Of a stretch of DNA of 64,000 nucleotides, positions 32,366 to 55,491 are shown piece after piece. Position numbers and translations under genes: made by a program. The notes beneath the pieces are model-generated. The model searched no databases. It was given only the letters and a program-made list of their open reading frames with translations, and was not told the origin of the DNA. How positions within the stretch are numbered: position 1 is the first letter of the stretch; the number at the start of each line of letters is the position of its first letter. The stretch is from Acidobacteriota bacterium (GTDB lineage Bacteria; Acidobacteriota; CAIWXX01). Where the stretch lies: the NCBI GenBank assembly GCA_040755995.1, contig JBFMAF010000029.1:1-64000 (forward strand). Reading direction: 5' to 3'.

Positions 32366-32920
32366 CTAGCCCTTCTTCGAGATCCGGGCGAGGGTGTCCA
32401 TGATCTTCTGCACACCGTACTTGTTCATCAGCGATTCCAGCCCTGCCTCCATCTCGTCCTGGCTCCCTTCTTCTGCTGCTACTTCCTCCTCCCGCTCTTC
32501 ATAGACCAGGGCGTCGTTCAGGCACCACTGGACGCACATCGGCTCCGCCAGCGGCGGATCGCTTTCGCACATGTCGCATTTCAACGGAAGGCCGGAATCT
32601 GGCTCTTTGAATATCGGCCTCGATGAACACGACGCCCTGCAGAAGCTGCACTCGTCGTATTCCTTCCCGTCGATCACGTACTTGTCCCTTCCGGCGCACT
32701 CGGCCGGAGCGTACTCGCCTGCGTAGACGGGAACGTATATGTCCCGCAGCGGCTCGCGGATCACCCGGATTCTCGATCGTTCCGGATTGCTGCTGCTGTA
32801 TTTCGGCGAGGCGTGGAAGGCCGAGCAGATCACTTCGCACGCGCGGCAACCGTTGCACTTGTCTACGTCGACTTTGATCGTCTTGACCGTTTTCGTTCTT
32901 GTCTCGACCTTCATGGTCAC
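32366..32920 (-). CDS. bamC: BamC, 4Fe-4S subunit
   Basis: CNGCRACEVIC, ECSFCRASC, KCDMC..CVQWC; overlaps the bamB stop. Confidence 0.9.
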   Translation of the reverse strand: MTMKVETRTKTVKTIKVDVDKCNGCRACEVICSAFHASPKYSSSNPERSRIRVIREPLRDIYVPVYAGEYAPAECAGRDKYVIDGKEYDECSFCRASCSSRPIFKEPDSGLPLKCDMCESDPPLAEPMCVQWCLNDALVYEEREEEVAAEEGSQDEMEAGLESLMNKYGVQKIMDTLARISKKG

Positions 32921-34920
32921 TTCCGATCTGCCGCGGCGTTCTGCGCGGAAGGAGCCCCGCTATCGCCCGTCAATATGCCCCGTTTCAGCAAGTCCTCGGC
33001 GACGTAACCCAGTCCCAGCTCGTTCAAGCACTTCTCGGTGGGAACGCCCTGGTCGTTCCAGCCCTTGAATTTGTAGTACTCGTCCAGCAGCTTCTCCTCG
33101 AGCTCGGGGAATCGTTTCTTCCAGTGGTCTTCCGGAGGCCGATCGTCCTTCCTCGTCAGGCCTCTTCTATTGTTTATGGCCCTGAGGAGGGTGCGGTTCC
33201 TCTTGGTTACCTGCGTCAAGCCGGCCTCGTCAATGGCGATCCCGGCGGCCGAGGAGATCACGGCCGGGTAGTTGTGTATATGGTAGGGCGGCTTCAGAGG
33301 AAACGATGACAGGCCGGCGCAGACGCCCAGGGCGTCGTCGATATAGTGCATCTTCTCCTGCCAGTCCACGATTTCGCAGCACATCTCGACGGTCGGGTAA
33401 TTCGGAATCGAGCGTTCGCCGCGCAGTTCCCAATCCAGCAGATACTGCTTGAACTTCTCGTCGGGAACTTGGATCCAGTCTCTTACGAACTCCTCCCTCT
33501 CCTCCTTCGTCGCGAAAGGCGCCTGCGGGAACTGCCCCTCGATCTGGGTGATGTTCGCTTTTTCGCCCGTGGCGTACATGAGGAAATAGATCGGATTCAG
33601 CATTCCCAGCTTGAGCGGCAGCTGCTCGTGTTTCTTGATCGTGTTGTGAGCGTACTGCTCGGCGCCCTTGCCGATCGTCTGAGCAGCCCAGTACGTGCCG
33701 TTGGCCAGGACGTCCCCGATTCCTTCCCGGCGGACGATCCTGTCGAGCAGCCAGTAGAACTTCTCCTCGTTCTCGGACGGCATTCCCGCCAAATCATCGG
33801 CGCTCAGGATGCCGGCATCGTGCAGCTCGAGGGCGAATGCCATGACTTGCGGGGCCGAGTACGCGTCAACTCCGTATTCGGTGGCACGCTGAGCGATCCT
33901 GAAACCGAAATCCAGGTCGGAATAGGCTGCCATCGTGTACGTCAGCTTGGAGAAGCATTTCATCATGTAGGTCGAGAGCCCCGGCACCGAAATCGTCGCC
34001 CCGCATTTCATCGGGCAGTTGTAGCAGCTGATCAGCCTCTTCCTGACTTTTTCCTGGGTCCCTGCCCACTTCTGCTCTATTTCCTTCGTCCAGAAATCCT
34101 TCCGCCGGGTGCGGGAGTTCCCCCACATGAAATTGGTGGTGTGCCATTCCTCGTCGACGAGTTTCATCTCTTGCGGTGAGCCCAGCCCGGCCAGAATGGG
34201 CATCACACCGGGAATCGGTTTCTGCTCTCGCAGCGCGATGTATCGCAGCACTTCGTTGCAGAGATCCATGAGCTCCGCCGGGCGGGCAACGTTGAGGTCC
34301 TGCGTTCCCCGAACGGCGATGGCCTTCAGCCTCTTGTCACCCATTACGGCGCCGATCCCCAGCCGGCTCGCACTGGCCCTCCCGTGCTCGATCGAAGCGA
34401 AATAGACCCTGTTCTCGCCCGCGAGTCCGATCGCCGCCACCTGGGCCTTCGGTTCCTTCAACTCCTGCCGAATGAGCTCAGCGGTTTCGATCGCGCCCTT
34501 GCCGTGAAGGTGAGATGCGTCGCGTATCTCCACCTTGTCGTTGTCGATCCACAAGTAGACCAGCTCGGGGGATTTCCCGCGAATGACGACCTTGTCATAT
34601 CCGGCGTGCTTCAACTCGGGCGCCCAGAAGCCCCCCATCATCGAGTAGCCCATCAGCAGAGTCTGGGGGGAATACGTGGAAACGATGGTGCGATTGGCAC
34701 CGGGAACGGGCGTGCCGGCCAGCAGGCCGGCGGCGAATATCAGCAGGTTGTCCGGAGAGAAGGGTTCGACTTCGGGAGGGACCCTGTCCCAGAGCATCCT
34801 GGCGTTGGTTCCCAGCCCTCCCAGGTGAAGCTCGGTCAGCTCCGGATCGCTCTCCACCCGTTCGATGTTGCCCCTCGTAAGATCGATTTCCAGATTGAAC
34901 CCTGTCTCTGCGAACCTCAT
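32917..34920 (-). CDS. bamB: BamB, tungstopterin catalytic subunit of class II benzoyl-CoA reductase (AOR family)
   Basis: MRFAETG..GGFWAPELK..GAVMGDK..CYNCPMKC..YMMKCFSKLTY..TQIEGQFPQ..CAGLSSFPLKPPY, which I recognise as BamB-type; bamC-I gene order supports it. Confidence 0.92.
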   Translation of the reverse strand: MRFAETGFNLEIDLTRGNIERVESDPELTELHLGGLGTNARMLWDRVPPEVEPFSPDNLLIFAAGLLAGTPVPGANRTIVSTYSPQTLLMGYSMMGGFWAPELKHAGYDKVVIRGKSPELVYLWIDNDKVEIRDASHLHGKGAIETAELIRQELKEPKAQVAAIGLAGENRVYFASIEHGRASASRLGIGAVMGDKRLKAIAVRGTQDLNVARPAELMDLCNEVLRYIALREQKPIPGVMPILAGLGSPQEMKLVDEEWHTTNFMWGNSRTRRKDFWTKEIEQKWAGTQEKVRKRLISCYNCPMKCGATISVPGLSTYMMKCFSKLTYTMAAYSDLDFGFRIAQRATEYGVDAYSAPQVMAFALELHDAGILSADDLAGMPSENEEKFYWLLDRIVRREGIGDVLANGTYWAAQTIGKGAEQYAHNTIKKHEQLPLKLGMLNPIYFLMYATGEKANITQIEGQFPQAPFATKEEREEFVRDWIQVPDEKFKQYLLDWELRGERSIPNYPTVEMCCEIVDWQEKMHYIDDALGVCAGLSSFPLKPPYHIHNYPAVISSAAGIAIDEAGLTQVTKRNRTLLRAINNRRGLTRKDDRPPEDHWKKRFPELEEKLLDEYYKFKGWNDQGVPTEKCLNELGLGYVAEDLLKRGILTGDSGAPSAQNAAADRK

Positions 34921-35060
34921 GGTCTTCCTTCTTGCATGGCCCGGATCGGTCATTCCGGCCGGCTTCGAAAACTGACCGGAAATCAACCTTGGTCAGTATA
35001 TCAGAAGCCTGAGCGGGCGACAAGAGAGAGAGCGCGCCCCCGCGCCCCCCGTTCCCGGGT

Positions 35061-35486
35061 CTAGTCTCTGCTCGCTTGTTGGTCTCCCAGTTCTCGCAAG
35101 AAGTCGGCCGCCCTGACGATCTTGATCTTGCCGTGGTGACCCATCGGGAGCAGATGCCGTTCATCTCCTGATACGATGTGCGATGCGGCACCCTCGAGTG
35201 CGCACTCGATCACCTTGTCGTCGTCCGGGTCAGCGCTGACCACCCGGACGGTCCCGGTGACGGGGATGACGTGCAGAAAGCCGAGGAGATCCGCGACAGC
35301 TTCCGCACTGTCAGAGTACGAAAACCTCAATTTACTTCGCAGCTTCTCGTCCAGCTCCTCCAGGATCTCCCTGCACGTCAGGCCGGTGACGATGCGCGCA
35401 CGCGAAGCCTCGAGACACTCGTAGGGGTTGCCCCGCCAACCGATCGCAGAGAACAGTATGTTGGTGTCGAAGACGGCTACGAGCAT
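35061..35486 (-). CDS. PIN-family toxin
   Basis: VFDTNILFSA..DPDDDKVIECA..IVSGD.RHLL. Confidence 0.9.
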   Translation of the reverse strand: MLVAVFDTNILFSAIGWRGNPYECLEASRARIVTGLTCREILEELDEKLRSKLRFSYSDSAEAVADLLGFLHVIPVTGTVRVVSADPDDDKVIECALEGAASHIVSGDERHLLPMGHHGKIKIVRAADFLRELGDQQASRD

Positions 35487-35728
35487 CGCCGGTCTTCGTG
35501 CACGAGATCGTCCACCAGTCTCTGGCGCTCGTCGTCGCTCATCGTCTCCCAGTCGAGACCGCGCTCAGCGGCATTGCGGCGCAGCTGAGCCTCAGCCAGC
35601 GCCATTCGGGACTCACGGCGTGCGCGTGCGTCATCGGCCAGTCTGAGAAGAACGGCGCGCTTTAACTCCGGGCGCAGATGATCTATCAGTTCAAGGACCT
35701 GTTCCTCGGACAGCTCCAAGACCGCCAT
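35477..35728 (-). CDS. putative antitoxin
   Basis: Small acidic ORF overlapping the PIN gene start. Confidence 0.7.
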   Translation of the reverse strand: MAVLELSEEQVLELIDHLRPELKRAVLLRLADDARARRESRMALAEAQLRRNAAERGLDWETMSDDERQRLVDDLVHEDRRCS

Positions 35729-35902
35729 CTTCCCTCTCCTGTTCAACCGATTCTAGCACACATGCGGATCGAGTTGTGCTTGAACCCGCGTTGGCGCCTT
35801 GGTACGCTGCTCAAGATCCTTCGGGGCCCCAGCTTCCTGATGTACGCGAGGTCGAGGATCACGATCACGAGAAAGCAGCGGTGTGTGGTATAATGACCCG
35901 AA

Positions 35903-39425: not shown

Positions 39426-39453
39426 CATCGGGGTGCTTCGGGATCGCGGCGGG

Positions 39454-40029
39454 ATGAGCGTGCCGGCGATCGTGCTAGCGGCCGGCAGGAGCAGCCGCTT
39501 CGGCCGCAACAAGCTCGTGCAGCCGGTGCGAGGCAGGCCGATGATCCACTGGGTCCTCGATGCTCTGGCGGATCCGCGACTTTCGCCAATCATCGTGGTC
39601 GTGGGGTTCGAGAAAGAGGTCGTCGCCGAGTGCTGCGCCCAGCTCGCTGGGCCCGTAACGATCGTCGAGAACGAGCTCTACGAACAGGGCAGGTCCAGCT
39701 CGATTCGCGCCGGCATCACTGCGCTCCCGCCTGGAAGCTCATGCGCTCTGGTCGCGCTAGGAGACATGCCATTCATCACGGCTTCGCTTGTCACGGCACT
39801 GCTCGATGCCTTTCACCGGAAGCCTCTGATTACGTTCCCGATCGTCGCAGGCAGGAAAGGACACCCCGTCATATTCCCGGCGCACACGTTTCCGCTGCTG
39901 CAGCAGTTGCGTGGAGACAAGACGCTCCACGACTACCTTCTGAACCACCCGGACCTCACGCAGCCGATCCCATGGGACGACAGCGGTTGCACGGTCGACA
40001 TTGATACGAGCGACGACCATCCAGGGTGA
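39454..40029 (+). CDS. MocA-like molybdenum cofactor nucleotidyltransferase
   Basis: IVLAAGRSSRFG.NKL..LGDMP..GHPVIF..DIDT. Confidence 0.85.
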   Translation: MSVPAIVLAAGRSSRFGRNKLVQPVRGRPMIHWVLDALADPRLSPIIVVVGFEKEVVAECCAQLAGPVTIVENELYEQGRSSSIRAGITALPPGSSCALVALGDMPFITASLVTALLDAFHRKPLITFPIVAGRKGHPVIFPAHTFPLLQQLRGDKTLHDYLLNHPDLTQPIPWDDSGCTVDIDTSDDHPG

Positions 40030-40290: not shown

Positions 40291-40749
40291 ATGGAAGAGA
40301 AGGGGCTTGAACGTCGCGACTTCATGAGGACCACGGTGACTGGCGCCGCCGCCATGGCTGTGGGAGGCGCGCTCGGGAGCGAACATGCCCACGCGAGTGA
40401 CATCACGTGGGGAAAGAGGCTCAATGAGCCGCTCGTGAACCTGCTGGACGCCAAGTATGCTGACATGCTCGTCGGCGACGCCAGGAAGATCCTCAAGAAG
40501 GATCTCATCCATATGCGCATGATCGAGGTCCGTGATAGTGAGGGCTTGACGAACCCACGCATCAAGGCTCTGAATGTCACGGAGATTCGGTCGATCGAGG
40601 ATGCACTGGACCAGTGGCACAAGGACATCCTCCAGGGCACCGCGCAGGTGGATCTCGCCTCGCTTAACGGCGACGCATGCTGCTGCTGCACGTGCACTCC
40701 GTGCTGCTCCTGCACCTGCGCCGCCGCGGTTACTGACAGCGTGAGGTGA
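40291..40749 (+). CDS. RiPP precursor with a Tat-like signal and a Cys/Thr/Ser-rich core
   Basis: ERRDFMR + hydrophobic stretch + AHA; C-terminal CCCCTCTPCCSCTC; first gene of the YcaO cluster. Confidence 0.85.
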   Translation: MEEKGLERRDFMRTTVTGAAAMAVGGALGSEHAHASDITWGKRLNEPLVNLLDAKYADMLVGDARKILKKDLIHMRMIEVRDSEGLTNPRIKALNVTEIRSIEDALDQWHKDILQGTAQVDLASLNGDACCCCTCTPCCSCTCAAAVTDSVR

Positions 40750-40890
40750 TCGAGGGCTGGCGCCATTCGCGAGCTGCCGCGCCGGGACGAACGAACCTGG
40801 CGTGCACCGTCTACTTCGACCTCAGGGTGAGAAGTGTGCCAGCCCGAAGGGAGGGGCGTGGGGATTAGTGGAGCCCCTTGACCGTTGCCC

Positions 40891-42177
40891 ATGCATGTTC
40901 TCCTGATCCATCCTGATTACGAGTTGGACCCCGCCGCATATGGTGCGGCCGACTGTTGGTTCTGCGAGCCTCTCGCGCTAGAGTACCTGGCAGCCGGTGC
41001 CAGGCTCGACGGCCACGAGGTGCGCATTCTGGATCTGCGACTTCATCCGGGTGGTCTGAGCCGGGCACTCGCTGAATTCACTCCGGATGTAGCCGGCATA
41101 ACCGGCTACAGCCAGCATGTGCCGCGGATGCTGGAGATATGCAAGGAGTGCAAGGCGGTTCTCCCCAACTGCGCAACGGTAGTAGGCGGGCATCACGCGA
41201 CGGTGATGCCCGAGGATTTCTTCCGCTCGGAAGTCGACCACATCGTAATCGGGGAAGGGATTCTCCCGCTCCGCAGGCTTCTTGCCGATCTGGACATGGG
41301 CGTACGCGAGAGGGTGCCGGGCGTCTGGAGCCGGGATGGTGACGCGTTCATCGATGGCGGCGAGGCACCTCATCCCGCGCTGGATTCCCTGCCGCAGCCC
41401 GACAGGACGACCTCGGCGAGTGATCGGTCGTACTACTACATGGGGGCCATGAAGCCGGTCGCCCTGCTGCGTACCTCCATCGGCTGCACCTTCCGCTGCT
41501 CGTTCTGCTCGCTCTGGAGGTTGATGCGAGGGAAGTACCTGGTGAGGAGCATTGACGACGTCGTCCGAGAGATCGAGCAGATCGGCGAGGAGAATATCCA
41601 CGTTGTGGACGACGAGCCGTGGCTGGATCGCCGGCGCATGGAGTTGCTGGCCGGCAGTATCGCCAGGGCGGGGATCCGAAAGAGCTATTTCGCGTACTGC
41701 CGGGTGGATACCCTGATCAAGCACGAGAGCCTCTTGAGCACGTGGCGAGGCATAGGACTCCGCTGCCTGTTTCTGGGCATTGAGGCCATTACGCCCCGTG
41801 AGCTGCAACAGTACAAGAAGGGATACACGGTCGCGCAGGTGGAAAGGGCTCTGGAAAGGGCGGCGGACCTGGGCCTGACTCCATATTGCCTGTTCGTCAT
41901 TCATCCCTCCTATTCGCGAACGGAGTTCGACCGGCTCTCGCGTTTCATCCAGCGGCGGCGCATTCCGAATCCAAGCTTCACGGTCTGGACTCCACTTCCC
42001 GGAACCTATGAGCTGGCCGATTTCCAGGGACTGACTGAGCTTGGCGTCAACGGGCGTCCCAACTGGTACTACTGGGATCTCCAGCACCCGGTAGTCCCGA
42101 CGCGCCTGCCCAAGGAGGAGTTCATGCGACAAGTGCTTCGAATGCGCATGGTGCACAGCAACCTTCTCCGGCGATAG
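40891..42177 (+). CDS. cobalamin-dependent radical SAM enzyme (class B methyltransferase-like)
   Basis: N-terminal B12-binding domain (EPLALEYLA..VVGGHHAT..GEG) and CTFRCSFC. Confidence 0.9.
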   Translation: MHVLLIHPDYELDPAAYGAADCWFCEPLALEYLAAGARLDGHEVRILDLRLHPGGLSRALAEFTPDVAGITGYSQHVPRMLEICKECKAVLPNCATVVGGHHATVMPEDFFRSEVDHIVIGEGILPLRRLLADLDMGVRERVPGVWSRDGDAFIDGGEAPHPALDSLPQPDRTTSASDRSYYYMGAMKPVALLRTSIGCTFRCSFCSLWRLMRGKYLVRSIDDVVREIEQIGEENIHVVDDEPWLDRRRMELLAGSIARAGIRKSYFAYCRVDTLIKHESLLSTWRGIGLRCLFLGIEAITPRELQQYKKGYTVAQVERALERAADLGLTPYCLFVIHPSYSRTEFDRLSRFIQRRRIPNPSFTVWTPLPGTYELADFQGLTELGVNGRPNWYYWDLQHPVVPTRLPKEEFMRQVLRMRMVHSNLLRR

Positions 42178-42201
42178 TCGGGTATCGAAAGGACAATCCC
42201 C

Positions 42202-43296
42202 ATGCCTGAAGACAGGAGACTGCGGTCATTCACGGTTCAGTTGATTGAGCAGAGCGACGGGGTGCTCATCCTCAGAGGGAACAGACGGCTGAGAGTGACG
42301 GGGGAAGGAGCCGCCGAAGCAACTCAGATCATCTTCACGGCCACGTCCGAAGATGGTATACCCCTGGAACAGTTGCTGGAGCTCTTCCCAGGGCCCGACA
42401 GGGACCCAGCCGAAAAGCTCATCGAGCGCCTGCTGGGTGCGTCGTTTCTGATCTACTCCGACGGCCCCCTGCAGCCGCCTCTGGATAGGATGGAGGACGA
42501 GCAAGACATCTTCTACTGGACATATGGAGTCGGTGCCAGCACCGTCAGGAAGAACCTGGATCAGTTTGGAATCCTCGTCGCCGGAGTGAACCGGATCACA
42601 CGCCGGCTGTGCGAGGCGATCCAGCTGTGCGGCATCAGCAAGTACCAGGTCATCGACGACAATCTGCTTCGCAACGCCCGTCTATTCGATGCCGACGGGC
42701 GACTGCGCCCAGAGGAATGGCCGTCCCCGCTGCACGCGCCGATCGGGAACGAGGGCCGTCTCAGGGACATCGATCTCTCAGGCATCGGCTGCCTGATCGC
42801 GGCCTCGGATGCGGGGGGCCAGTACTACCTGCGCGACTGGAACCGCTACTGCGTGGACAACAAGCTGGTGTTCCTGCCGGTGGTCCTGAGGGATGCCGTG
42901 GGATTGGTGGGTCCCATAGTGGTTCCGGGCGATACGGCTTGTCTCGAGTGCCTGCGGCTGCGCGAGGACTCGAACCTCGGCGACCCGCCGGCGATGCGCG
43001 CAGGCGAAGCCCACGCCTTCCACGCCCAGATCGTCAACGGGATGCTTCCGTCCATGGCCTCGATCCTGGGGGACATCGCCGCGATGGAGACCGTCAAGTT
43101 TTTCTCCCGCCTGCTGCCGTGGAGAGTCGGCCACCTGGTGGAAGTGAATCTCATGGCTCCCGAGCTCCAGGTGCGGAGAGTACTGCGAGTGCCGCGGTGC
43201 CCAGTCTGCGGTCCTCTGTCCCGCACACCGTCACAATCCCCGCTCAAGCTCAGTTTCGTACCCGCCAACTACACGGACTACACCGATGCGAAGTGA
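42202..43296 (+). CDS. TOMM leader-binding E1-like partner of YcaO
   Basis: N-terminal RRE-like region; VGPIVVPGDTACLECL..R; RVPRCPVC. Confidence 0.88.
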   Translation: MPEDRRLRSFTVQLIEQSDGVLILRGNRRLRVTGEGAAEATQIIFTATSEDGIPLEQLLELFPGPDRDPAEKLIERLLGASFLIYSDGPLQPPLDRMEDEQDIFYWTYGVGASTVRKNLDQFGILVAGVNRITRRLCEAIQLCGISKYQVIDDNLLRNARLFDADGRLRPEEWPSPLHAPIGNEGRLRDIDLSGIGCLIAASDAGGQYYLRDWNRYCVDNKLVFLPVVLRDAVGLVGPIVVPGDTACLECLRLREDSNLGDPPAMRAGEAHAFHAQIVNGMLPSMASILGDIAAMETVKFFSRLLPWRVGHLVEVNLMAPELQVRRVLRVPRCPVCGPLSRTPSQSPLKLSFVPANYTDYTDAK

Positions 43297-44617
43297 CGAC
43301 GTCCCGGTGCGCCGCCTCCTGGGTGCCCTCGATCACGTGGTCGACGGCAGGGTCGGCATTGTCAAGAGCCTTGAGGAACGACCGGCGGAGCCGGGAGCAC
43401 CGGCCTTTCATCATGTGTACTCGCATGCATGCAACACGGCCTGTTTCGCGGGCTACGAGAACTTCCGGCACAACGGCGGCGCCGCGGCGACGCTCGAACG
43501 CGCCGTGGCCAAGGCAGTCGGGGAGGCCGTCGAGCGGTACTGTTCCGCTATCTACGATCATACGGCGCTGACCGTTTGCCCCGCTGAATCCGCCCCCTTC
43601 GAATGCATCGACCCTGCCGTCTTGGAGCTTTACCGGCCTGAGGATTACAGCAGGCCGGACTTCCCATGGACTCAGTGCCTGCCGTCCACCCCGGTCCGCT
43701 GGACCAGATGTGTTGATGTCTTGGCCGGCCGAGAGATCCACGTGCCGGCGGCGATGGTCCATCTTCCTTACTACTTCCACCCCGCCAACGAGGACCCTCC
43801 TATCATGCAGCCTATCTCCACGGGACTTGCCTGCCACATGGGCGCGTTTGGAGCGGCATGCGCAGGTGTTTATGAAGTAGTGGAACGCGATGCGATTACG
43901 ATCGCTTGGCAGGCGGAGCTGCCGCTGCCCCACGTCATTCCGGAAACCCTCATCGCGGAGAGCTACGACCTGGTGGAGCGATTCGAGAGAGTCGGCTTCC
44001 GCGTGACGATCCTGGACGCAACGATGGATCACGGGATTCCCACTATTCTGAGCGTGTTGCTGAGCGACGTGGAAACGCAGCCCGCGGTCGTGGTGGCCGG
44101 CGCAGCTCATCTGGATCCCGAGCGCGCCATGCGCGCGAGCCTCGAGGAGTTGGCCCATACGCGGCGCTACAGCCACCTGATTAAGAGCTACAGCCCGCTC
44201 AAGGAGGCGGGACTGGACTACCAGGAAGTGAAGAACCAGGTCGGGCACCTTGGGTATTGGGCCGAGCATGAGAACCGGCACAAGATAGGCTTCCTGCTGC
44301 GTTCCGAGGAGCGGGTGGATTTCGGCGAAATCCCGTGCCTGGACACCGGCCATCCCAGGGAGAACTTGCTCGTCCTGTGCCGCCGGATCGAGTCCGTCGG
44401 CTGTCGCGTGCTCGTGGCTGACCTGACCACCGACGACGTTCGCGACCTGGGTTTTGCCGTAGTCCGAGCCGTCGTCCCCGGTTTCCATCCCCTCTTCCTC
44501 GGCCATTCGCACCGCGCCACCGCAGGAATAAGACTGACTCAGACGCCCGGGCGCCTTGGACTGGTAGGACGAGACGTGCGAGACGGTGGCAATCCGTTGC
44601 CCCATCCCTATCCGTGA
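43286..44617 (+). CDS. YcaO cyclodehydratase
   Basis: KAVGEAVERY, STGLACH, EVVERDA and a C-terminal PLPHPYP typical of azoline-forming YcaO. Confidence 0.95.
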   Translation: MRSDDVPVRRLLGALDHVVDGRVGIVKSLEERPAEPGAPAFHHVYSHACNTACFAGYENFRHNGGAAATLERAVAKAVGEAVERYCSAIYDHTALTVCPAESAPFECIDPAVLELYRPEDYSRPDFPWTQCLPSTPVRWTRCVDVLAGREIHVPAAMVHLPYYFHPANEDPPIMQPISTGLACHMGAFGAACAGVYEVVERDAITIAWQAELPLPHVIPETLIAESYDLVERFERVGFRVTILDATMDHGIPTILSVLLSDVETQPAVVVAGAAHLDPERAMRASLEELAHTRRYSHLIKSYSPLKEAGLDYQEVKNQVGHLGYWAEHENRHKIGFLLRSEERVDFGEIPCLDTGHPRENLLVLCRRIESVGCRVLVADLTTDDVRDLGFAVVRAVVPGFHPLFLGHSHRATAGIRLTQTPGRLGLVGRDVRDGGNPLPHPYP

Positions 44618-44624
44618 GGTGGAC

Positions 44625-45425
44625 ATGCTGATGGAGAACAGAACGTTGAGAAGCCTGCGGCGGGCCGTCGGCGCGGCCAGCCGGTCGTGGGAGATCTACC
44701 ATGAGAATTCCAAACTGACTCAATTCGATATTGCGCCTCCAGGGGAGTGGGTGGTGCAGGAGATGGAGCGATACACGCATTCTCTGGACTTCCGAGGGAG
44801 ACCGGAATTCAAGCTCCCCGCCGACCTCGACCCCTTGCAGCTCTCCCTTGGGGAATCCATCACGCAGCGCGTATCGACACGCAAGTTCTCCGAACGGGCT
44901 ATCGCCTTTCGGGAGCTGGCCACCCTGCTGCACTACTCTTATGGGATCAATCGAACCAACGAGGGAACGGGCTTCCCCAGACCGTTCCGCAACGTTCCAT
45001 CGGGCGGCGCACTGTACCCTCTGGATATCTTCTGCTGTGTGAGGGCCGTCGACGGCCTGAGCCCCGGCCTCTATCACTTTCACCCCCCGAGCAGCAGCCT
45101 GAGGCTGCTCGCCGAAGGCGACTGGACAAGGCAGCTCTCGCCGATCGTCGTGCAACAGGAGTTGAGCGCTGCCGCCGTCATGCTGTTCATAGTGGCGCAG
45201 TTCGAGCGCGCCCTGTTCAAGTACAAGGACCGAGGCTACCGGTTCGTGTTGCTCGACGCGGGGCACCTGGCACAGAACATCAATCTCGCATCCACTGCAC
45301 TGGGCCTCGGATCGGTCGATATCGGCGGCTATTTCGATCGCAAGGCCGACGATTTCGTCGGAGTCGACGGCCTGCTGCAGTCGACGATCTACATGGTGGC
45401 CGTCGGGCACAAGCAGGCCGAATAG
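44625..45425 (+). CDS. SagB/ThcOx FMN-dependent azoline dehydrogenase
   Basis: YHENSK, RVSTRKF, RNVPSGGALYP, KYKDRGYRF..LDAGH. Confidence 0.93.
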   Translation: MLMENRTLRSLRRAVGAASRSWEIYHENSKLTQFDIAPPGEWVVQEMERYTHSLDFRGRPEFKLPADLDPLQLSLGESITQRVSTRKFSERAIAFRELATLLHYSYGINRTNEGTGFPRPFRNVPSGGALYPLDIFCCVRAVDGLSPGLYHFHPPSSSLRLLAEGDWTRQLSPIVVQQELSAAAVMLFIVAQFERALFKYKDRGYRFVLLDAGHLAQNINLASTALGLGSVDIGGYFDRKADDFVGVDGLLQSTIYMVAVGHKQAE

Positions 45426-45455
45426 CTGATCCGCACCGATCGATGGGGGCAGAAC

Positions 45456-46370
45456 ATGATCGATGATCAGGCGTATGTGCAGTTGTTGTCCAGACATTGG
45501 GGACTTTTCGGCAGCGAAGGTCAGGAGAGGATCGCCAGGGCGAGGGTTGCCGTCGGAGGGTTGGGGGGCATTGGGAGCGCGGCGGCGCTGCTTTTTGCCA
45601 AAGCCTCGGTCGGCAAGCTCGTCATCTGTGACCGCCAGGCGTACGGCGTCGAAAACGTCTGCCAGCAGGCTCTGGCTTCGCACGGAGCTGTTGGAATACC
45701 GAAGGCCGATGCCGCGGCCGCCGAGTGCGCCCGGCACACCCGGCACACTGAGCTCAAGGCATTCTCAGGTGATCTCACGGACCCGGTGGTTGCGGCCGCT
45801 CTGGTCGAAGGCGCCGACGTGGTTGTGTCCGCTGTGGACAACCCCGAAGCCCGCAGCGTCCTGGGCGTCGTCTGTTCGCGTGCCGGCATCCCATTCGTGG
45901 TGCCGGCAGCCATCGGGTGGAGCATCATTCACACAGTCTACTTCCCGGGCGAATGGGCTTATGACAGCCAGTTTCGGTTCATGAAGGGCATCCGTCTCAG
46001 CGATGGTCTGCCTGACATGCGCGACGAGCTCACCAGCCGGATGATCCGGCGGGAATGGAGAATGTGGTCGGTCGCAGTAGCAGGCTGGAACAGGGAAGCC
46101 CTGGAGAAGTTCCTCAGAGGCGAAGAGCCCTGCTATTGGATCTCCGCACCCCAATGCTTCTTCGGCGCGTCGCTGGGGATCCTTGACGCACTCAAGATTG
46201 TCAGTGGCGTGGGCGCTCCGTTCAGATACCCGGCGCTCTTCTGCTACGACACGAAATCACATTGCATACTCTCGCTGAACGATATTCTGAGGCGCCGACA
46301 CTGCCTGCAGGAGGTTTGGGAGAAGGGCCCCGAGGCAGTGCTGACGGTGGTTGAGTCGTGGGAGACGTGA
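45456..46370 (+). CDS. ThiF/MoeB-family adenylyltransferase-like protein
   Basis: GQERI..ARVAVGGLGGIG..ICD..KADAA..DVVVSAVDN. Confidence 0.85.
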   Translation: MIDDQAYVQLLSRHWGLFGSEGQERIARARVAVGGLGGIGSAAALLFAKASVGKLVICDRQAYGVENVCQQALASHGAVGIPKADAAAAECARHTRHTELKAFSGDLTDPVVAAALVEGADVVVSAVDNPEARSVLGVVCSRAGIPFVVPAAIGWSIIHTVYFPGEWAYDSQFRFMKGIRLSDGLPDMRDELTSRMIRREWRMWSVAVAGWNREALEKFLRGEEPCYWISAPQCFFGASLGILDALKIVSGVGAPFRYPALFCYDTKSHCILSLNDILRRRHCLQEVWEKGPEAVLTVVESWET

Positions 46371-46509: not shown

Positions 46510-47406
46510 TCAACGTCGTGCGGGCCATCCCCGCTGTAACACATCGAGGGCAGCCGCCGCGTCCAACGCGCGAGGCGCAGTCTCCCCCTCGAACGCGAGC
46601 GGATGCGCCGTCTCGCGGAGGATCTGCTTGCATTGAGACGGCGACAGATCGGGCTTGACGGCCTTCATGAGCGCTAAAACTCCTCCAACTACTGGTGCCG
46701 TCGAAGAAACAGATAAGAACGCTTGTCTCCAGGGCTTGTTCTCGGACAGCACTTGGCGACACCTCTCAATCCACACAACGGTGTAGTCGTAGTGAAGGAC
46801 ATTGACGTCCGGCTCTCTGCCGTCATCAGTACCGCCCCACAAGCCGGAAGGCATGATGTTGCCGGGATGACTACAGTGAATGAAGGCGGTCCCGATCCCA
46901 GCCTTGTGGGCGCGATCCAGGGCAGCGTCGAGGACTCTCCGCGCTTGCCCGCCGACTGCCTCCTGTGAATACGTCAGCACGTGCAGTCGTTGTTCGATTG
47001 CCCAGTCGACGGCATCCGATATGGCAGTCACTGTGGCAGGGGGATCGTCGAAGACGACCACATTGAGAGCGTAGACATCGGCCTCTGGCGCGATTTCGTG
47101 GAGGACCGTTGCCATCCAGTATCCATGCCATTCCCGTTCCATGAGGTACGCCTCACCGCCCTTCGCGAAGTTCCTCGCACCCGCGTACAGCGTTGGATGC
47201 AGCCTCACGCCGAAGCTATGGTCCAGTATTCCTACCCGGATTCCACGACCCCTCGAGATGTTCTGGGCCTGCGCGATGTTGTGTAGTGTGAAGTAGGATT
47301 CCCTGCCGTTGGCACCTGGAAAAACCAGAACCGTGTTCGGATCGTCGGCATGAAGGAGAGTGCCCAGAAAACACAACGTTGCAGGAATCAGAATTACGCA
47401 TCGCAT
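46510..47406 (-). CDS. secreted S8 subtilisin-like peptidase
   Basis: Signal peptide; GIRVGILD, WHG..MA..IAPEA, VSSTAPVVGGVLALM. Confidence 0.8.
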   Translation of the reverse strand: MRCVILIPATLCFLGTLLHADDPNTVLVFPGANGRESYFTLHNIAQAQNISRGRGIRVGILDHSFGVRLHPTLYAGARNFAKGGEAYLMEREWHGYWMATVLHEIAPEADVYALNVVVFDDPPATVTAISDAVDWAIEQRLHVLTYSQEAVGGQARRVLDAALDRAHKAGIGTAFIHCSHPGNIMPSGLWGGTDDGREPDVNVLHYDYTVVWIERCRQVLSENKPWRQAFLSVSSTAPVVGGVLALMKAVKPDLSPSQCKQILRETAHPLAFEGETAPRALDAAAALDVLQRGWPARR

Positions 47407-47590: not shown

Positions 47591-47842
47591 TCAAGCGGCG
47601 CGACGCTTTGATGCGCGTCTGCCGGAGCGACCGGTGATGCGCGCGGTTTCCTGCGTGAGCGCGAGCAACGCTCGCAACGCCTCGTTTACCGCGTTAGAAC
47701 TGGGGAACACCTTGGCCAGGCTCGGATCGAGAAGGACAACCGACGTGCCCTTCGCGACCTCTTTGAAGAACTTCCCCCGTTCCAGCCTGCCGAAGTCGGA
47801 GCGTCGGTACTCTGCGCGCATTCCGTCTTCAACCTTCTTCAT
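47591..47842 (-). CDS. BrnA-like antitoxin
   Basis: MRAEY..RGKF..VLLDP.LAKVFP..AVNEALR. Confidence 0.8.
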   Translation of the reverse strand: MKKVEDGMRAEYRRSDFGRLERGKFFKEVAKGTSVVLLDPSLAKVFPSSNAVNEALRALLALTQETARITGRSGRRASKRRAA

Positions 47843-48104
47843 ATAGCTTCCTCTCTGCGTGAGTGGCACGCCGGGCGCTGATGATGCGAATGCCGCCATG
47901 GCGATAAGTACGCGAGACCGCAAGCAATCGACCAAGGCCCGACAGTCCGAATGTGATGTAACGAGACTCCTCTGCGGAGTGGTCAGGGTCCGGACCAGAT
48001 ACCGCCAGCGGATCAAGGAACACTGAGGCACCTTCGTCGAAGGATACGCCGTGCTTGGCCGCGTTGGACCTTGCCTTCACCGGATCCCGTTCGAACTTCA
48101 TCAT
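47829..48104 (-). CDS. BrnT-family toxin
   Basis: KA.SN..KHGVSFDE..VF.DP..DPDHS..E.R..IRIISAR.AT. Confidence 0.9.
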   Translation of the reverse strand: MMKFERDPVKARSNAAKHGVSFDEGASVFLDPLAVSGPDPDHSAEESRYITFGLSGLGRLLAVSRTYRHGGIRIISARRATHAERKLYEEG

Positions 48105-51480: not shown

Positions 51481-52056
51481 TTGAATACTCCGGATACGAT
51501 CGAACTGCCGAGAATGCTTCTGATCGGCTCGAGCGGGCGTAACGCGGGCAAGACGCGGCTGGCCGTCAGAGTCATAGGCAACTACTCCGGCAAGGTCGAC
51601 ATCATCGGGCTCAAGGTGACGGCGGTCACGGAGAGAGATGGATTGTGCCCGAGAGGAGGCGAGGGGTGCGGCGTCTGCTCGCAGATGGAAGGGGAGTACT
51701 GCATCGTGGAGGAGCTCGACGCCGAGGGCCAGAAAGACACCTCGCTGCTCCTCCGTGCAGGCGCTCGACGCGTCTACTGGCTCAGGGTCATGAAAGACAA
51801 GATGAGAGACGGGATGGAAGCCCTGCTGCGCGAGCTGCCCGAGGACGCCGTGGTTGTTGCCGAGTCGAACAGCCTCCGCCTGGCCGTCAAGCCGGGGCTC
51901 TTCCTGATGGTGGCGGACAGCAGATCGAAGCCGAAGCCGTCGGCAGAGCAGGTATGGGCGCTGGCGGATCGCATCATCGAGACCAACGGCCAGGAATTCG
52001 ACACAGGTAGAATAGACGCCATACGGCTCACGGACGCGGGCTGGGAGTGCGCGTGA
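51481..52056 (+). CDS. MobB-related P-loop protein
   Basis: IGSSGRNAGKT, CPRGGEGCGVC, KDT....AGA, ESNS; coupled to mobA. Confidence 0.7.
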   Translation: MNTPDTIELPRMLLIGSSGRNAGKTRLAVRVIGNYSGKVDIIGLKVTAVTERDGLCPRGGEGCGVCSQMEGEYCIVEELDAEGQKDTSLLLRAGARRVYWLRVMKDKMRDGMEALLRELPEDAVVVAESNSLRLAVKPGLFLMVADSRSKPKPSAEQVWALADRIIETNGQEFDTGRIDAIRLTDAGWECA

Positions 52057-52625
52057 GCGCTCCCGGTTCCAGCGGCCGCTCGGCCATCATCCTGGCCGGC
52101 GGAGAAAGCACGCGCATGGGCAGAGACAAGGCGCTGCTGCCGTTCAAGGGCAGGCCTCTGGTGCAGAACATCTTCGAGACGATCGAGCCCTATTTCGACG
52201 AGATCATCCTGAGCTCCAACCATCCGGAACGCTACGGCTTTCTGAAGGCCAGGGTGGTGCTGGATGAAGAGACGGGCCGCGGCCCGCTGATGGGTCTGTA
52301 CTCTGCGCTGCGCGCGTCCTCCAGCGAGATCAACTTCGTCGTCGCCTGCGACATTCCGGAGGTCAACGTGCGGTTCATGCTGAGCCTCCTGGAACATGCG
52401 GCTGAGTACGACGCGGTCGTCGCAAGCATAGGGGAGTGGCGTGAGCCGCTCTTCTCCGTCTACCGGAAATCCTTGACGTCTGTGATCCGAGCGGTTCTGG
52501 ATGAGGGCAAGAACAAGATCACGTGCGTCTTCGGGCGATGCCGTGTGAAGTATCTTCAAATGGAGGAGGCCGCATGGTACAGGAACATCAACACCGACGA
52601 GGACTATGAGAGCCTGAGCCGATGA
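52053..52625 (+). CDS. mobA: molybdenum cofactor guanylyltransferase
   Basis: ILAGGESTRMGRDKA..GPLMG..ACDIP..EPL..NINT. Confidence 0.92.
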   Translation: MSAPGSSGRSAIILAGGESTRMGRDKALLPFKGRPLVQNIFETIEPYFDEIILSSNHPERYGFLKARVVLDEETGRGPLMGLYSALRASSSEINFVVACDIPEVNVRFMLSLLEHAAEYDAVVASIGEWREPLFSVYRKSLTSVIRAVLDEGKNKITCVFGRCRVKYLQMEEAAWYRNINTDEDYESLSR

Positions 52626-52729
52626 GCTGTTGATGTCTTTCCTCGCCGATCGGTCCGACTGACCGCAGGTGCTCCGGCAGGCGGCATGAGGAGCCCCTGG
52701 GCTCTATCATTCGCCTACTGCTCTCACGG

Positions 52730-52759
52730 TTGACAAGCCTTTGGGGGTTATCCTAGACT
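52730..52759 (+). promoter_or_regulatory. sigma70 promoter of the molybdoenzyme operon
   Basis: TTGACA-18 bp-TAGACT. Confidence 0.65.
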
Positions 52760-52860
52760 CGCTGCAGTGGTCATTGCAGGAGCTGGCGCTGTGGTCTGTG
52801 TTCCAGCATAGCTGAATCCGGAAGAAGATGGCCGATTTCTTCTAGAAAGGCGAAGTGCAG

Positions 52861-55491
52861 ATGGACGTACAACCTGGGCACGTCAAAGAGGACGTTTGGA
52901 TTCCGACCTCCTGCGGGGGATGCTACGCGCAGTGCGGCATACTCTGTCACCGTGTGAACGGTCTCCTGGTCGAGATCGAGGGGAACCCGGAGAGCCCGGC
53001 CGGGAGCGGCAGGATCTGCGCGAAGGGGACGGCGCAGCTCATGACGCTCTACGACCCGCACCGGATCAACTACCCGGTGAAGCGGACGAATCCGCAGAAA
53101 GGGGTGGGAGTCGATCCGATGTGGGAGCGGATCAGCTGGGAAGAGGCGCTCGACATCATCGTCTCGAAGCTGAAGGCGGCTCATCAGAAGGACCCGAGAG
53201 GTGCGTACTTCCAGGCGACGACGGTGCAGACCAGCGAGATCAGGTTTGCCGTGATCGCGTTCATGCGCGCCTTCGGCTTCAAGAACTACTGGGTGTCGGG
53301 CGGGGGCTTGTGGTGCGGCAACGGAGCCCACTTCATGAACGGAATCATGCACGCCGCCTGGTCGATTATCCCGGACTTCCAGCTCAACAACTACACGCTC
53401 TACTTCGGGTGCTCCAAAGGCCACGGGGCCGGTCACGCAGCGCTTCAAACGGCGCAGCAGGCCGCCGACGCGAGGGCGAGGGGCATGAAGGCGGTGGTCT
53501 TCGATCCCTATCTTTCGACACAGGCGTCCAAGGGGCACGAGTGGGTTCCGATCCGAGTCGGAACGGACGGAGCCATGGCGCTGGGATTGATAAACGTCCT
53601 CCTCAACGAGCTCAACATCTACGATGCCGAGTACCTCAAGCTGAAGACGAATGCGGCTTACCTGATACAGCCGGATGGGCACTACAAGAGAGACAAGACC
53701 ACCACGAAGCCTCTGGTCTGGGACAGCGTAGACGGCAGAGCAAAGGCATTTGATGATCCCACGATCAAGGATTTCGCCCTCGATGCCACGTACGACGTCG
53801 ACGGGACGACCTGTTCGACTGCGTTCAAGCTCCTCAAGGAACACGTCAAGAAAGAGTATCCGATCGAGAAGGTCTCGAAGATCACGAGCGTCCCGGTGAA
53901 GACGATCCGGCGCATTGCGAAGGAGTTCGGTGAGCATGCCCAGATCGGCAGCACGATCAGCATCAAAGGGAAGGTGCTTCCGCTCAGGCCTTCGGCGGCC
54001 ATCTTCTTCCGCGGGACGCAAGGGCACGTGAATTCGGGCTGGACATGCCTGTCGATCGATCTTCTCAACCACGTCATCGGAGCCGCGGACGTTCCGGGTG
54101 GATCGATGGGGCATGGCCCGCCGGTCTGCCAGGGCTACCCGGACACGGGGAAGCCGAACACGGTCCCGTATCCGTGCGAGGACGGCCTGATGGTGGTCAA
54201 GGGCTGGGTGTACGATCACAAGCCCTATCCGCTCCGCAAGCCCTCCCCTCCGGCCCGGCTCGACCTCCAGGACATGTTCCCCTGCTCCGTCTACAATGCA
54301 TTCACGATCTGCTCGCCGGATTGGGAGAAGTATCTGGAGAAGTTCAAGATCGACTACCGCCCCTCGATCATGATCAACTTCGGCTCCAACTCGGTCATGA
54401 CGATGGGCAACGCCGAGCAGGTGACCGAGAACTTCCTGAAGAAGTTCGAGTTCATCTTCTCTTTCAACATCTATCACAACGAGTTCACCGAGGCGGTTGC
54501 CGACGTCGTTCTGCCGGATGCGTCCTTCCTGGAACGATACACGCCCTGCGTGACGTTCCCGTCCACGTTCTCGCACCCGACGGCGGTCGATCACTGGGTC
54601 TGGCAGATACGGCAGCCGGTCGTGGAGCCCCTCTACGAGCGGCGCGACTTCAACGAAGTGATGCTGCACATCGCGGACAGGCTCGGCCTCAAGAGCAAGT
54701 ACTTCGACGCGATCAACAAGATCATTCCCGTGCGCTACGGCGGCGACATGAGCAAGGAGTACGAGCTCGATCCCAACGGCGACCACAGCTGGCAGGATAT
54801 CTGCGACCGAGTGCTCAAGGACCGGCTCGGCGCGGGACACGGCCTGGAGGAGCTGAAGAAGACGGGGCTCGTGAAATGGCCGACGAAGGTCGAGGAGATG
54901 TACTGGAGATGGTTCGTTCCGGTCAGGGTTCCGATCTACTTCGAGTACTTCATAGACGCGGGCAAGCAGTTGAAGGAGGTGGCCGGGTCGTTCGGCATGC
55001 CTGAGATCGCCGACTACAAGTTCTACGAGCCGCTGGCGCAGTGGAATCCGTGCCCGTCTCACACGATGGAAGGATCGGAATACGATCTCTGGGCATTCTG
55101 CTGGCGCCCGTCGTTCCACACCCAATCGTCGAGCCAGAACAACCCGTGGCTCGACGAGATTTCGGTCAACGACCCGTGGGTGTACATGATTCAGATCAAC
55201 GAGCAGACCGGCAAGAAGAAGGGAATCGCCGACGGAGACATGGTCTGGGTCGAGAACCCGATCGGCAAGCGGATCAAGGGAAGGGTGAGGCTGGTTCAGG
55301 GGGTCCATCACGAGCACGTGTCCATCGCCGGCTGCCACGGCCACTGGGCGAAGGGGATGCCGATAGCGAAGGGCAAGGGGGCGTTCTTCGATGATCTGAC
55401 CGAGTGCGATCTGGCGCACACAGATTCCCTGACGCAGGGTTCCGACACTTGCGCGAAGGTGAAGATCTACAAGTGCGAGGTGGCGTCATGA
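52861..55491 (+). CDS. DMSO-reductase-family Mo/W-bisPGD catalytic subunit without a Tat signal
   Basis: CGGCYAQC..ICAKG FS0 motif, ISWEEALD, GTDGA, ADVVLP..LER, GIADGD.V.V. Confidence 0.92.
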   Translation: MDVQPGHVKEDVWIPTSCGGCYAQCGILCHRVNGLLVEIEGNPESPAGSGRICAKGTAQLMTLYDPHRINYPVKRTNPQKGVGVDPMWERISWEEALDIIVSKLKAAHQKDPRGAYFQATTVQTSEIRFAVIAFMRAFGFKNYWVSGGGLWCGNGAHFMNGIMHAAWSIIPDFQLNNYTLYFGCSKGHGAGHAALQTAQQAADARARGMKAVVFDPYLSTQASKGHEWVPIRVGTDGAMALGLINVLLNELNIYDAEYLKLKTNAAYLIQPDGHYKRDKTTTKPLVWDSVDGRAKAFDDPTIKDFALDATYDVDGTTCSTAFKLLKEHVKKEYPIEKVSKITSVPVKTIRRIAKEFGEHAQIGSTISIKGKVLPLRPSAAIFFRGTQGHVNSGWTCLSIDLLNHVIGAADVPGGSMGHGPPVCQGYPDTGKPNTVPYPCEDGLMVVKGWVYDHKPYPLRKPSPPARLDLQDMFPCSVYNAFTICSPDWEKYLEKFKIDYRPSIMINFGSNSVMTMGNAEQVTENFLKKFEFIFSFNIYHNEFTEAVADVVLPDASFLERYTPCVTFPSTFSHPTAVDHWVWQIRQPVVEPLYERRDFNEVMLHIADRLGLKSKYFDAINKIIPVRYGGDMSKEYELDPNGDHSWQDICDRVLKDRLGAGHGLEELKKTGLVKWPTKVEEMYWRWFVPVRVPIYFEYFIDAGKQLKEVAGSFGMPEIADYKFYEPLAQWNPCPSHTMEGSEYDLWAFCWRPSFHTQSSSQNNPWLDEISVNDPWVYMIQINEQTGKKKGIADGDMVWVENPIGKRIKGRVRLVQGVHHEHVSIAGCHGHWAKGMPIAKGKGAFFDDLTECDLAHTDSLTQGSDTCAKVKIYKCEVAS

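Follow-up and report, generated by a model that had tools for sequence, protein, structure and literature searches.

The stretch of DNA considered here comprises 64,000 nt (the window) from an Acidobacteriota bacterium (assembly GCA_040755995.1, contig JBFMAF010000029.1), and the system in question is a gene cluster that lies between positions 40291 and 46370. An initial annotation had proposed that this region encodes an azole-containing peptide made on ribosomes and modified after translation (a RiPP), with a 152-aa precursor followed by a B12-dependent radical S-adenosylmethionine (SAM) enzyme, an E1-like partner, a YcaO protein, SagB and ThiF. The precursor was described as the motif RRDFM, a hydrophobic region, the cleavage site AHA, a helical spacer, a core with nine Cys residues and a tail, and all of these can be read in the ORF at 40291-40749, where RRDFM occupies residues 8-12. 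The enzymes that follow are recognized by Pfam or TIGRFAM-type models (Table 1). The proposed class holds as well, as the D, B and C proteins pass the cut-offs of TIGR03604, TIGR03605 and TIGR03882, respectively. Judged by these three proteins and by its Cys/Ser/Thr-rich precursor, the predicted cluster is of the azole-RiPP type known as linear azol(in)e-containing peptides (LAP) or thiazole/oxazole-modified microcins (TOMM).

Table 1. Features of the predicted azole-peptide cluster and of the gene that converges on it, in window coordinates
Feature	Position	Strand	Basis or remark
Precursor gene (P0001), 152 aa	40291..40749	+	Sequence resembling a ribosome binding site upstream
Predicted twin-arginine signal peptide, residues 1-35	40291..40395	+	RR at 8-9, 17 uncharged residues, A-H-A at 33-35
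Conserved helical leader domain, residues ~41-120	40411..40650	+	AlphaFold2 and conserved columns
Core peptide, 14 residues	40678..40719	+	Nine Cys, one Pro (P137)
Short follower starting Ala-Ala-Ala	40720..40746	+	A144 conserved in 99% of the family
Cobalamin-dependent (class B) radical SAM protein, HpnR-like	40885..42177	+	Start TTG 40885 or ATG 40891
C protein (RRE and E1-like scaffold)	42202..43296	+	TIGR03882 and structure model
D protein (YcaO cyclodehydratase; C terminus rich in Pro)	43286..44617	+	Pfam, TIGR03604
B protein, SagB-type FMN dehydrogenase	44625..45425	+	ATG 44625 after a GAGG site; start in the open reading frame list GTG 44586
ThiF/MoeB-family protein without CxxC	45456..46370	+	Pfam 7e-30
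Convergent subtilase (S8) gene, hydrophobic N terminus/signal peptide	46510..47406	-	Pfam; meets the operon end

The D protein scores 271 bits against TIGR03604 (cut-off 219), as a YcaO protein of the azoline-forming type, and its C terminus reads PHPYP. SagB reaches 148 bits with TIGR03605 (cut-off 78), and the C protein 52.8 bits with TIGR03882 (cut-off 36.9); with TIGR03603 the C protein remains below the cut-off (73 versus 188). The structure model of the C protein, with a pLDDT of 91.5, opens with three strands and three helices, which is the arrangement of a RiPP recognition element (RRE), and aligns in fold along its whole length, over ~353 columns, with TruD, LynD and MccB. In the radical SAM protein, B12-binding and radical SAM domains are detected by Pfam at 1e-21 and 1e-16, a CxxxCxxC motif is present at residue 199, and the score with the HpnR model (222 bits) lies far under the equivalog cut-off of 650. 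The genes for C and D share 11 nt, and gaps of 7-30 nt separate the remaining enzyme genes; by this spacing the gene for ThiF is co-transcribed with them. A close counterpart of ThiF is absent from two genomes of the same family (G001 and G002; the window genome is termed G000), and the protein is not conserved in related clusters. ThiF, listed among the enzymes in the initial annotation, was thus set aside as a core component and is accessory at best. Elsewhere, G000 carries more than 20 B12 radical SAM-like genes, several of them clustered on contigs C24 and C33. The second YcaO gene of this genome (G000:C47:6150-7982 (+), 611 aa) was also considered for the pathway and rejected, as its product has no Pro-rich end and no precursor or SagB gene is nearby.

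Of the 14 core residues of the precursor, 13 are Cys, Ser or Thr. The core is the sole run of at least 10 Cys/Ser/Thr/Pro residues with at least six Cys in the 7.7-Mb genome when all six frames are read, and the family profile described below finds no second precursor copy there. The G+C content of the cluster (62.3%) equals that of the genome (62.7%) closely enough that there is no sign of recent transfer. In a promoter and terminator scan, sites resembling promoters were no more frequent than chance would give (2 versus 1.4), and terminator-like sites numbered 7 versus 3.2 expected, with none at the operon end.

An exhaustive phmmer search with P0001 returned 44 matches, from which a 1307-aa repeat protein (P0036) was dropped before all counts to leave 43 members. 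A profile built from these matches 364 clusters, 120 of which were listed, and 158 members were examined in all (154 fetched proteins and four from loci), with an alignment of 149 rows. The fetched members are ~100-190 aa long, and those with names belong to Cryptosporangium, Pseudonocardia, Sphingomonas and Nitrospirota. Common to the family is a domain of ~75 residues, followed by a core composed of a Cys run, a Pro and another Cys run, and then by Ala-Ala-Ala. Two Cys runs flank the Pro in 156 of the 158 members. In the alignment Pro137 is 99% conserved, Pro137 and four Cys columns together are 95-99% conserved, and the core as a whole hardly varies across the 149 members; L94, D98 and F106 are conserved columns in the helical domain. 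Supplied with the 149-row alignment, AlphaFold2 predicts a compact helical domain for residues 41-120, with a block pLDDT of 83-96, and gives the signal and the core low confidence. The precursor model has no Foldseek match at E 0.001 (best Z 3.3), which shows neither a new fold nor a lack of relatives, and structure-atlas searches yielded leads under 0.9 only. In Pfam and NCBIfam the 43 members match no family except models of the twin-arginine translocation (Tat) signal, along with stray single matches. A weak profile match (E 0.047) to PbtA, a thiopeptide precursor, was discarded as noise from Cys content. On these comparisons the putative precursors form a family that is undescribed, and it is the helical domain together with the Cys/Pro core, not the Tat signal, that defines it.

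In the collections searched, the precursor occurs in two of 401 genomes in a sample of its own phylum and was not found in the other genome sets (0/301, 0/2 and 0/137). A query with the alignment confirmed none of 597 metagenome and 430 viral contig pattern matches. A pattern scan of metagenome DNA gave, among the 120 stretches listed, two with full family members and three with a weak match to the core only. Viral contigs scanned with the C protein and the core pattern gave nothing, nor did plasmid searches with P0001, P0061 and ThiF. Several relatives carry other N termini. In P0013 the RR motif is degenerate and is accompanied by a hydrophobic stretch and a Cys in a lipobox-like setting, so that this member is possibly a lipoprotein form. 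In a clade that includes actinobacterial members (P0028, P0053-P0067 and relatives), another conserved N-terminal extension of ~60 aa without RR replaces the Tat signal. Two further open reading frames (ORFs), L091:297-686 (-) and L120:1-330 (+), fuse the same Cys-run/Pro/Cys-run core to a different leader, which we take to resemble the nitrile-hydratase-like (NHLP) leaders that end in a double-glycine motif. The occurrence of one core behind such a leader suggests leader swapping.

All five loci at which a family member has readable context place it next to genes for C, D or B. Both C and D are present in four of them, and the fifth (L034) is a contig of 1.1 kb on which SagB precedes the precursor. 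The locus in G001 (L004) comprises a Tat precursor, C, D, B, a tetratricopeptide repeat (TPR) protein and a divergent radical SAM gene. Plasmid pTM3 of Tistrella mobilis (locus L127) carries a precursor without a Tat signal, C, D, B and a TPR protein, and its D protein is 39% identical to that of the window (E 8e-98 for an assumed database size of 2e10). Metagenome locus L075 has the end of SagB, two tandem non-Tat precursors, C and D. The radical SAM gene has an orthologue, 48% identical, beside the precursor in G001; none was found in G002, which has no precursor. The TPR protein of ~780 aa that follows SagB, at L004:6460-8808 (-) and L127:15593-18046 (+), is 35% identical between these loci over 443 aa and has no match in G000. 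A YcaO query of genome contigs reached one unrelated locus, L001 (33%), in a genome without a family precursor. There, at L001:196-7212, a 466-aa YcaO protein and SagB are followed by two ORFs of similar size, 452 and 247 aa, which may have arisen by duplication.

No ATP-binding cassette (ABC) exporter or CAAX protease had been noticed in the cluster by the initial annotation, and this was borne out. Three plasmid ABC ATPase queries, which did recover a control locus (L129), found no ABC ATPase in the 64-kb window, in the G001 contig or in the Tistrella locus, where a gene of the major facilitator superfamily lies ~8 kb upstream of the cluster. The CAAX-type family PF02517 has seven matches in the genome and none on the cluster contig. 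For immunity genes, also noted as missing, there is no common signature. An S8 subtilase gene does converge on the operon end, which limits the absence of proteases to the CAAX type; its product may be an extracytoplasmic processing enzyme, and its membership of the cluster is uncertain. Both Tat clusters are in fact flanked by signal-bearing proteases of the subtilase clan, S8 in the window and an S53/kumamolisin-like enzyme at L004:14378-16141 (-), which give no tblastn match to each other and are not orthologues.

The Tat signal at the N terminus of the precursor scores 18.7 bits with TIGR01409 (cut-off 16.7). To survey the family we used a rule of our own, modelled on TatFind and TatP, that requires RR-x-[FGAVML]-[LITMVF] near the start followed by at least 13 uncharged residues. 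This rule is passed by 41 of the 158 members, with the motif RR-x-(F/A/L)-(L/I/M/V), compared with a mean of 0.29 and a maximum of three in 200 trials in which residues 2-60 were shuffled. The consensus of the 41 is D/S/N-R-R-x-F-L-K/R, the textbook Tat motif. A stricter pattern selects 27 of 4752 candidate ORFs of the genome, the precursor among them, and ~25 proteins of G000 carry Tat-type signals. TatC, the one translocase component searched for, is present in both G000 and G001. The hydrophobic part of the signal has a mean identity of 27%, versus 36% for the domain, and RR-x-F-L is fixed, as expected for a working signal.

The signal is unevenly spread over the family. It is present in 22 of the 43 members of the first list, a share inflated by the use of a signal-bearing query, and among the 364 clusters the 120 best profile matches include 23 with it. 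On a tree of the domain alone (a quick method, 157 rows and 118 columns, with many forks unresolved), the Tat label changes 16 times versus 36 with shuffled labels, strongly supported branches force only two of these changes, and one 48-member clade has the signal in none. This suggests that the predicted signal has been gained or lost repeatedly. The signal-less members at L075 and L127 keep the helical domain and adjoin C and D, so that enzyme recognition would reside in the helical domain or the core and would not need the signal. The Tat signal put forward in the initial annotation therefore withstands the TIGR01409, conservation and shuffling comparisons, and as a feature of the family it looks like a real but optional add-on. 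In the same way, the co-conservation that the annotation had asked for extends to the core and the C, D and B genes, and reaches the RR motif in a minority of homologues.

The enzymes resemble a group that has already been named in print. In the available parts of Cox et al. (2015; PMC4603692), 'gallolytisin' denotes an uncharacterized group of D proteins associated with a Cys4-Xaa-Cys4 core (Xaa = Pro, Ala or Asp), ABC transporters and a regulator, with a BLAST E threshold of 1e-54 for D-protein groups. The E-value of the window D protein against the pTM3 D protein falls within this threshold. Table S2 of that paper places the D protein I3TVJ1 of T. mobilis KA081020-065 in the group without giving a precursor, and from the strain name we infer that the pTM3 protein is UniProt I3TVJ1; the search covered the plasmid, whose record carries no annotation. 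Common to the window cluster and the group are C and D as separate proteins and a core in which two runs of Cys flank Pro, Ala or Asp. The strict Cys4-Xaa-Cys4 pattern is absent from the window core and present in one of the 158 members, and the precursors listed in the table do not follow it either. The listed precursors are 37-46 aa long, with no folded domain or signal, whereas that of the window has 152 aa, with a helical domain behind a Tat signal; in place of the ABC transporters and the regulator described for the group, the window cluster has a B12 radical SAM gene and no ABC transporter. As the precursor search of that paper took proteins of <150 aa whose C-terminal half was rich in Cys, Ser and Thr, long-leader precursors would probably have been missed. 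By sequence the window cluster is a LAP cluster related to the gallolytisin group, and an atypical one in precursor length and ABC content. In the full-text literature searched, the name 'gallolytisin' was found in the 2015 paper only. The earlier statement that no characterized LAP family has such a precursor is thus upheld for the architecture, as a long folded leader with a Tat signal was not found in print, and qualified for the enzymes, whose group is named and uncharacterized. As a side observation, the control locus on plasmid pPB of Lactiplantibacillus plantarum (L129:4667-11087) includes a short, unannotated, Cys-ended ORF similar to the gallolytisin precursors of the table; behind it come a hypothetical gene, genes for YcaO and SagB, an M16 peptidase gene and an ABC transporter.

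Other known systems share part of the architecture. Like streptolysin S and the cytolysins (SagABCD), the window cluster has discrete C and D proteins with SagB, a contiguous cyclisable core and a short non-cyclisable tail; it differs in having no ABC exporter or CaaX protease, an internal Pro and a long folded leader, and no SagA-type or streptolysin precursor model in NCBIfam or Pfam matches any of the 43 members at E 0.01. Contiguous cyclisable residues mark cytolysin cores in the available text of PMC4603692, according to which every cytolysin cluster includes ABC transporters as well as a CaaX protease. Azole peptides with NHLP/proteusin leaders such as nostatin A share a long protein-like leader, azoles and a class B cobalamin radical SAM enzyme, NstA, which is proposed in the available part of PMC11583998 to alkylate a core Pro flanked by Thr, Cys and Ser. 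The window cluster differs from these in having a Tat signal and neither LanM nor an epimerase, and NHLP or Nif11 leader models match none of the 43 members. Bufferins use Sec signals and bind copper in the periplasm (bioRxiv 10.1101/2024.03.18.585515; PMC12452194) and DAG-RiPPs use lipoprotein signals (PMC13056109), as far as the available text describes them. Protein-like precursors, Cys-derived heterocycles and a general export signal in place of a dedicated exporter are common to these systems and to the window; theirs rely on MNIO enzymes with Sec or lipoprotein signals, whereas the window has YcaO and SagB with a twin-arginine signal, and no MNIO (DUF692) gene among the cluster genes. 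'Tat' and 'twin-arginine' are absent from the searched text of PMC12452194 and PMC13056109, and these terms and 'signal peptide' from the available text of the LPP paper PMC13381572. In the full-text literature searched, which covers few subscription journals, we found no natural Tat-exported RiPP, no YcaO/Tat precursor and no such core motifs.

We consider it probable that the cluster specifies a LAP/TOMM pathway in which a small folded protein serves as precursor and would pass through azole formation in the cytoplasm and Tat export, with Pro methylation and metal binding as its less certain parts. The C protein would hold the precursor through its conserved helical domain and not through the signal. 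YcaO and SagB would then turn most of the core Cys residues, and perhaps Ser and Thr, into thiazoles and oxazoles on either side of the invariant Pro; thiazoles from core Cys are what the established chemistry of the C, D and B families would predict. The B12 radical SAM enzyme may C-methylate a core residue, most likely the invariant Pro by analogy with NstA, a step to which we give slightly less than even weight. It is likely that the twin-arginine signal would keep the precursor out of the Sec route, with the helical domain as the folded body that Tat accepts, and that TatABC would export the finished protein, with signal peptidase cutting after A-H-A. Cleavage at this site would leave a chain of 117 aa (12.9 kDa unmodified, as computed). 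The product might remain within the envelope of the cell, either intact or after trimming by a secreted subtilase. As a single function we tentatively prefer binding of metal ions by the near-invariant thiazole array, a leaning that draws on the near-invariance of the core, on the lack of a conserved immunity-like gene and on the analogy with bufferins.

Several observations weigh against parts of this proposal. With Pfam PF10518 the signal scores 16.2 bits, under the cut-off of 22.7. About three-quarters of the family has no Tat signal, so that Tat is unnecessary for the pathway in general, and the Tat-bearing clusters with readable context number two, both from one family of organisms. There is no ABC ATPase within 24 kb of the non-Tat Tistrella cluster either, and the missing exporter, which the initial annotation had taken as a pointer to Tat, therefore lends that route little support. 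The radical SAM gene, counted as part of the cluster from the outset, keeps its place by its position beside the precursor in one related genome; the Tistrella locus has no such gene, and a paralogue (43%) exists elsewhere in both G000 and G001. No metal-transport or metal-regulator gene was seen among the selected neighbouring ORFs scanned. Urban et al. (PMC5686179, available text) speculate that Tat could suit lanthipeptides, and report that their preliminary attempts at engineered Tat export failed.

Alternative readings differ chiefly in what becomes of the product. The same maturation and Tat export could yield a streptolysin-S-like membrane-active or antibacterial product, with the folded leader keeping it inactive until a secreted subtilase frees the core; an immunity gene would be unneeded, since the core would be freed only outside the cytoplasm. 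We regard this, the main rival, as rather unlikely. The contiguous cyclisable residues and the subtilase-clan proteases beside both Tat clusters speak for it, but those proteases are not orthologous, the transporter and CaaX protease found with all cytolysins are both missing, and a core that is nearly invariant across 149 members is unlike that of many competition peptides. It is unlikely, in our estimate, that the twin-arginine segment does not export the product at all and is instead a degenerate or recruited tether, a vestigial signal or a docking site, the product leaving or staying as it does in the non-Tat majority. That most members have no signal, and that an exporter-free gene set also accompanies a non-Tat precursor, would fit such a role; retention of all three signal regions in members over several branches of the domain tree, and the faster divergence of the hydrophobic part around a fixed RR-x-F-L, would not.

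Tat often carries cofactor-loaded proteins, and free Cys runs bind metals. The small protein might accordingly be an exported Cys-rich metal- or cluster-binding protein with no azoles, the YcaO genes acting on another substrate, and its weak match to NifU (E 0.012, far below the cut-off) points the same way. We hold this to be very improbable, given that members adjoin C, D or B genes at every locus with context, that the genome offers no other Cys-rich candidate and that the core resembles the gallolytisin precursors listed in the available table of PMC4603692. Azole formation followed by Tat export to the envelope, with metal binding as the tentative function, remains our preferred reading.

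An aldehyde:ferredoxin oxidoreductase, MocA-like and MobA-like transferases and a molybdopterin oxidoreductase lie around the cluster (32917-34986, 39433-40029 and 52047-55491). Molybdopterin genes were rejected as cluster members, since the scan of ORFs at the loci of G001 and Tistrella showed none. Two probable toxin-antitoxin pairs of type II stand on either side, with a PIN domain at 35061-35746 (-) and BrnT at 47591-48104 (-).

RiPPs normally need a dedicated exporter, and Sec and lipoprotein routes have only recently been reported, for bufferins and DAG-RiPPs. As Tat acts only once maturation in the cytoplasm is complete, it is well suited to such cargo. If true, a natural Tat-exported RiPP would show the solution reached by this pathway where, in the available text of PMC5686179, preliminary trials to engineer lanthipeptides for Tat export were without success. 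The missing precursor type is now supplied for part of the uncharacterized gallolytisin group, and T. mobilis KA081020-065 is a cultured strain with the non-Tat form of the pathway. As predicted from its genes, the system is a LAP pathway of a named but uncharacterized enzyme group, with undescribed folded-leader precursors that in a minority of cases bear a convincing twin-arginine signal. The chances appear evenly balanced that these precursors represent widespread, undescribed poly-thiazole mini-proteins, in which the folded leader would serve both as the surface recognized by the enzymes and as the body accepted by Tat, a subset would be exported by Tat without a dedicated exporter, and the tag (Tat, none or possibly lipoprotein) would be gained, lost or swapped.

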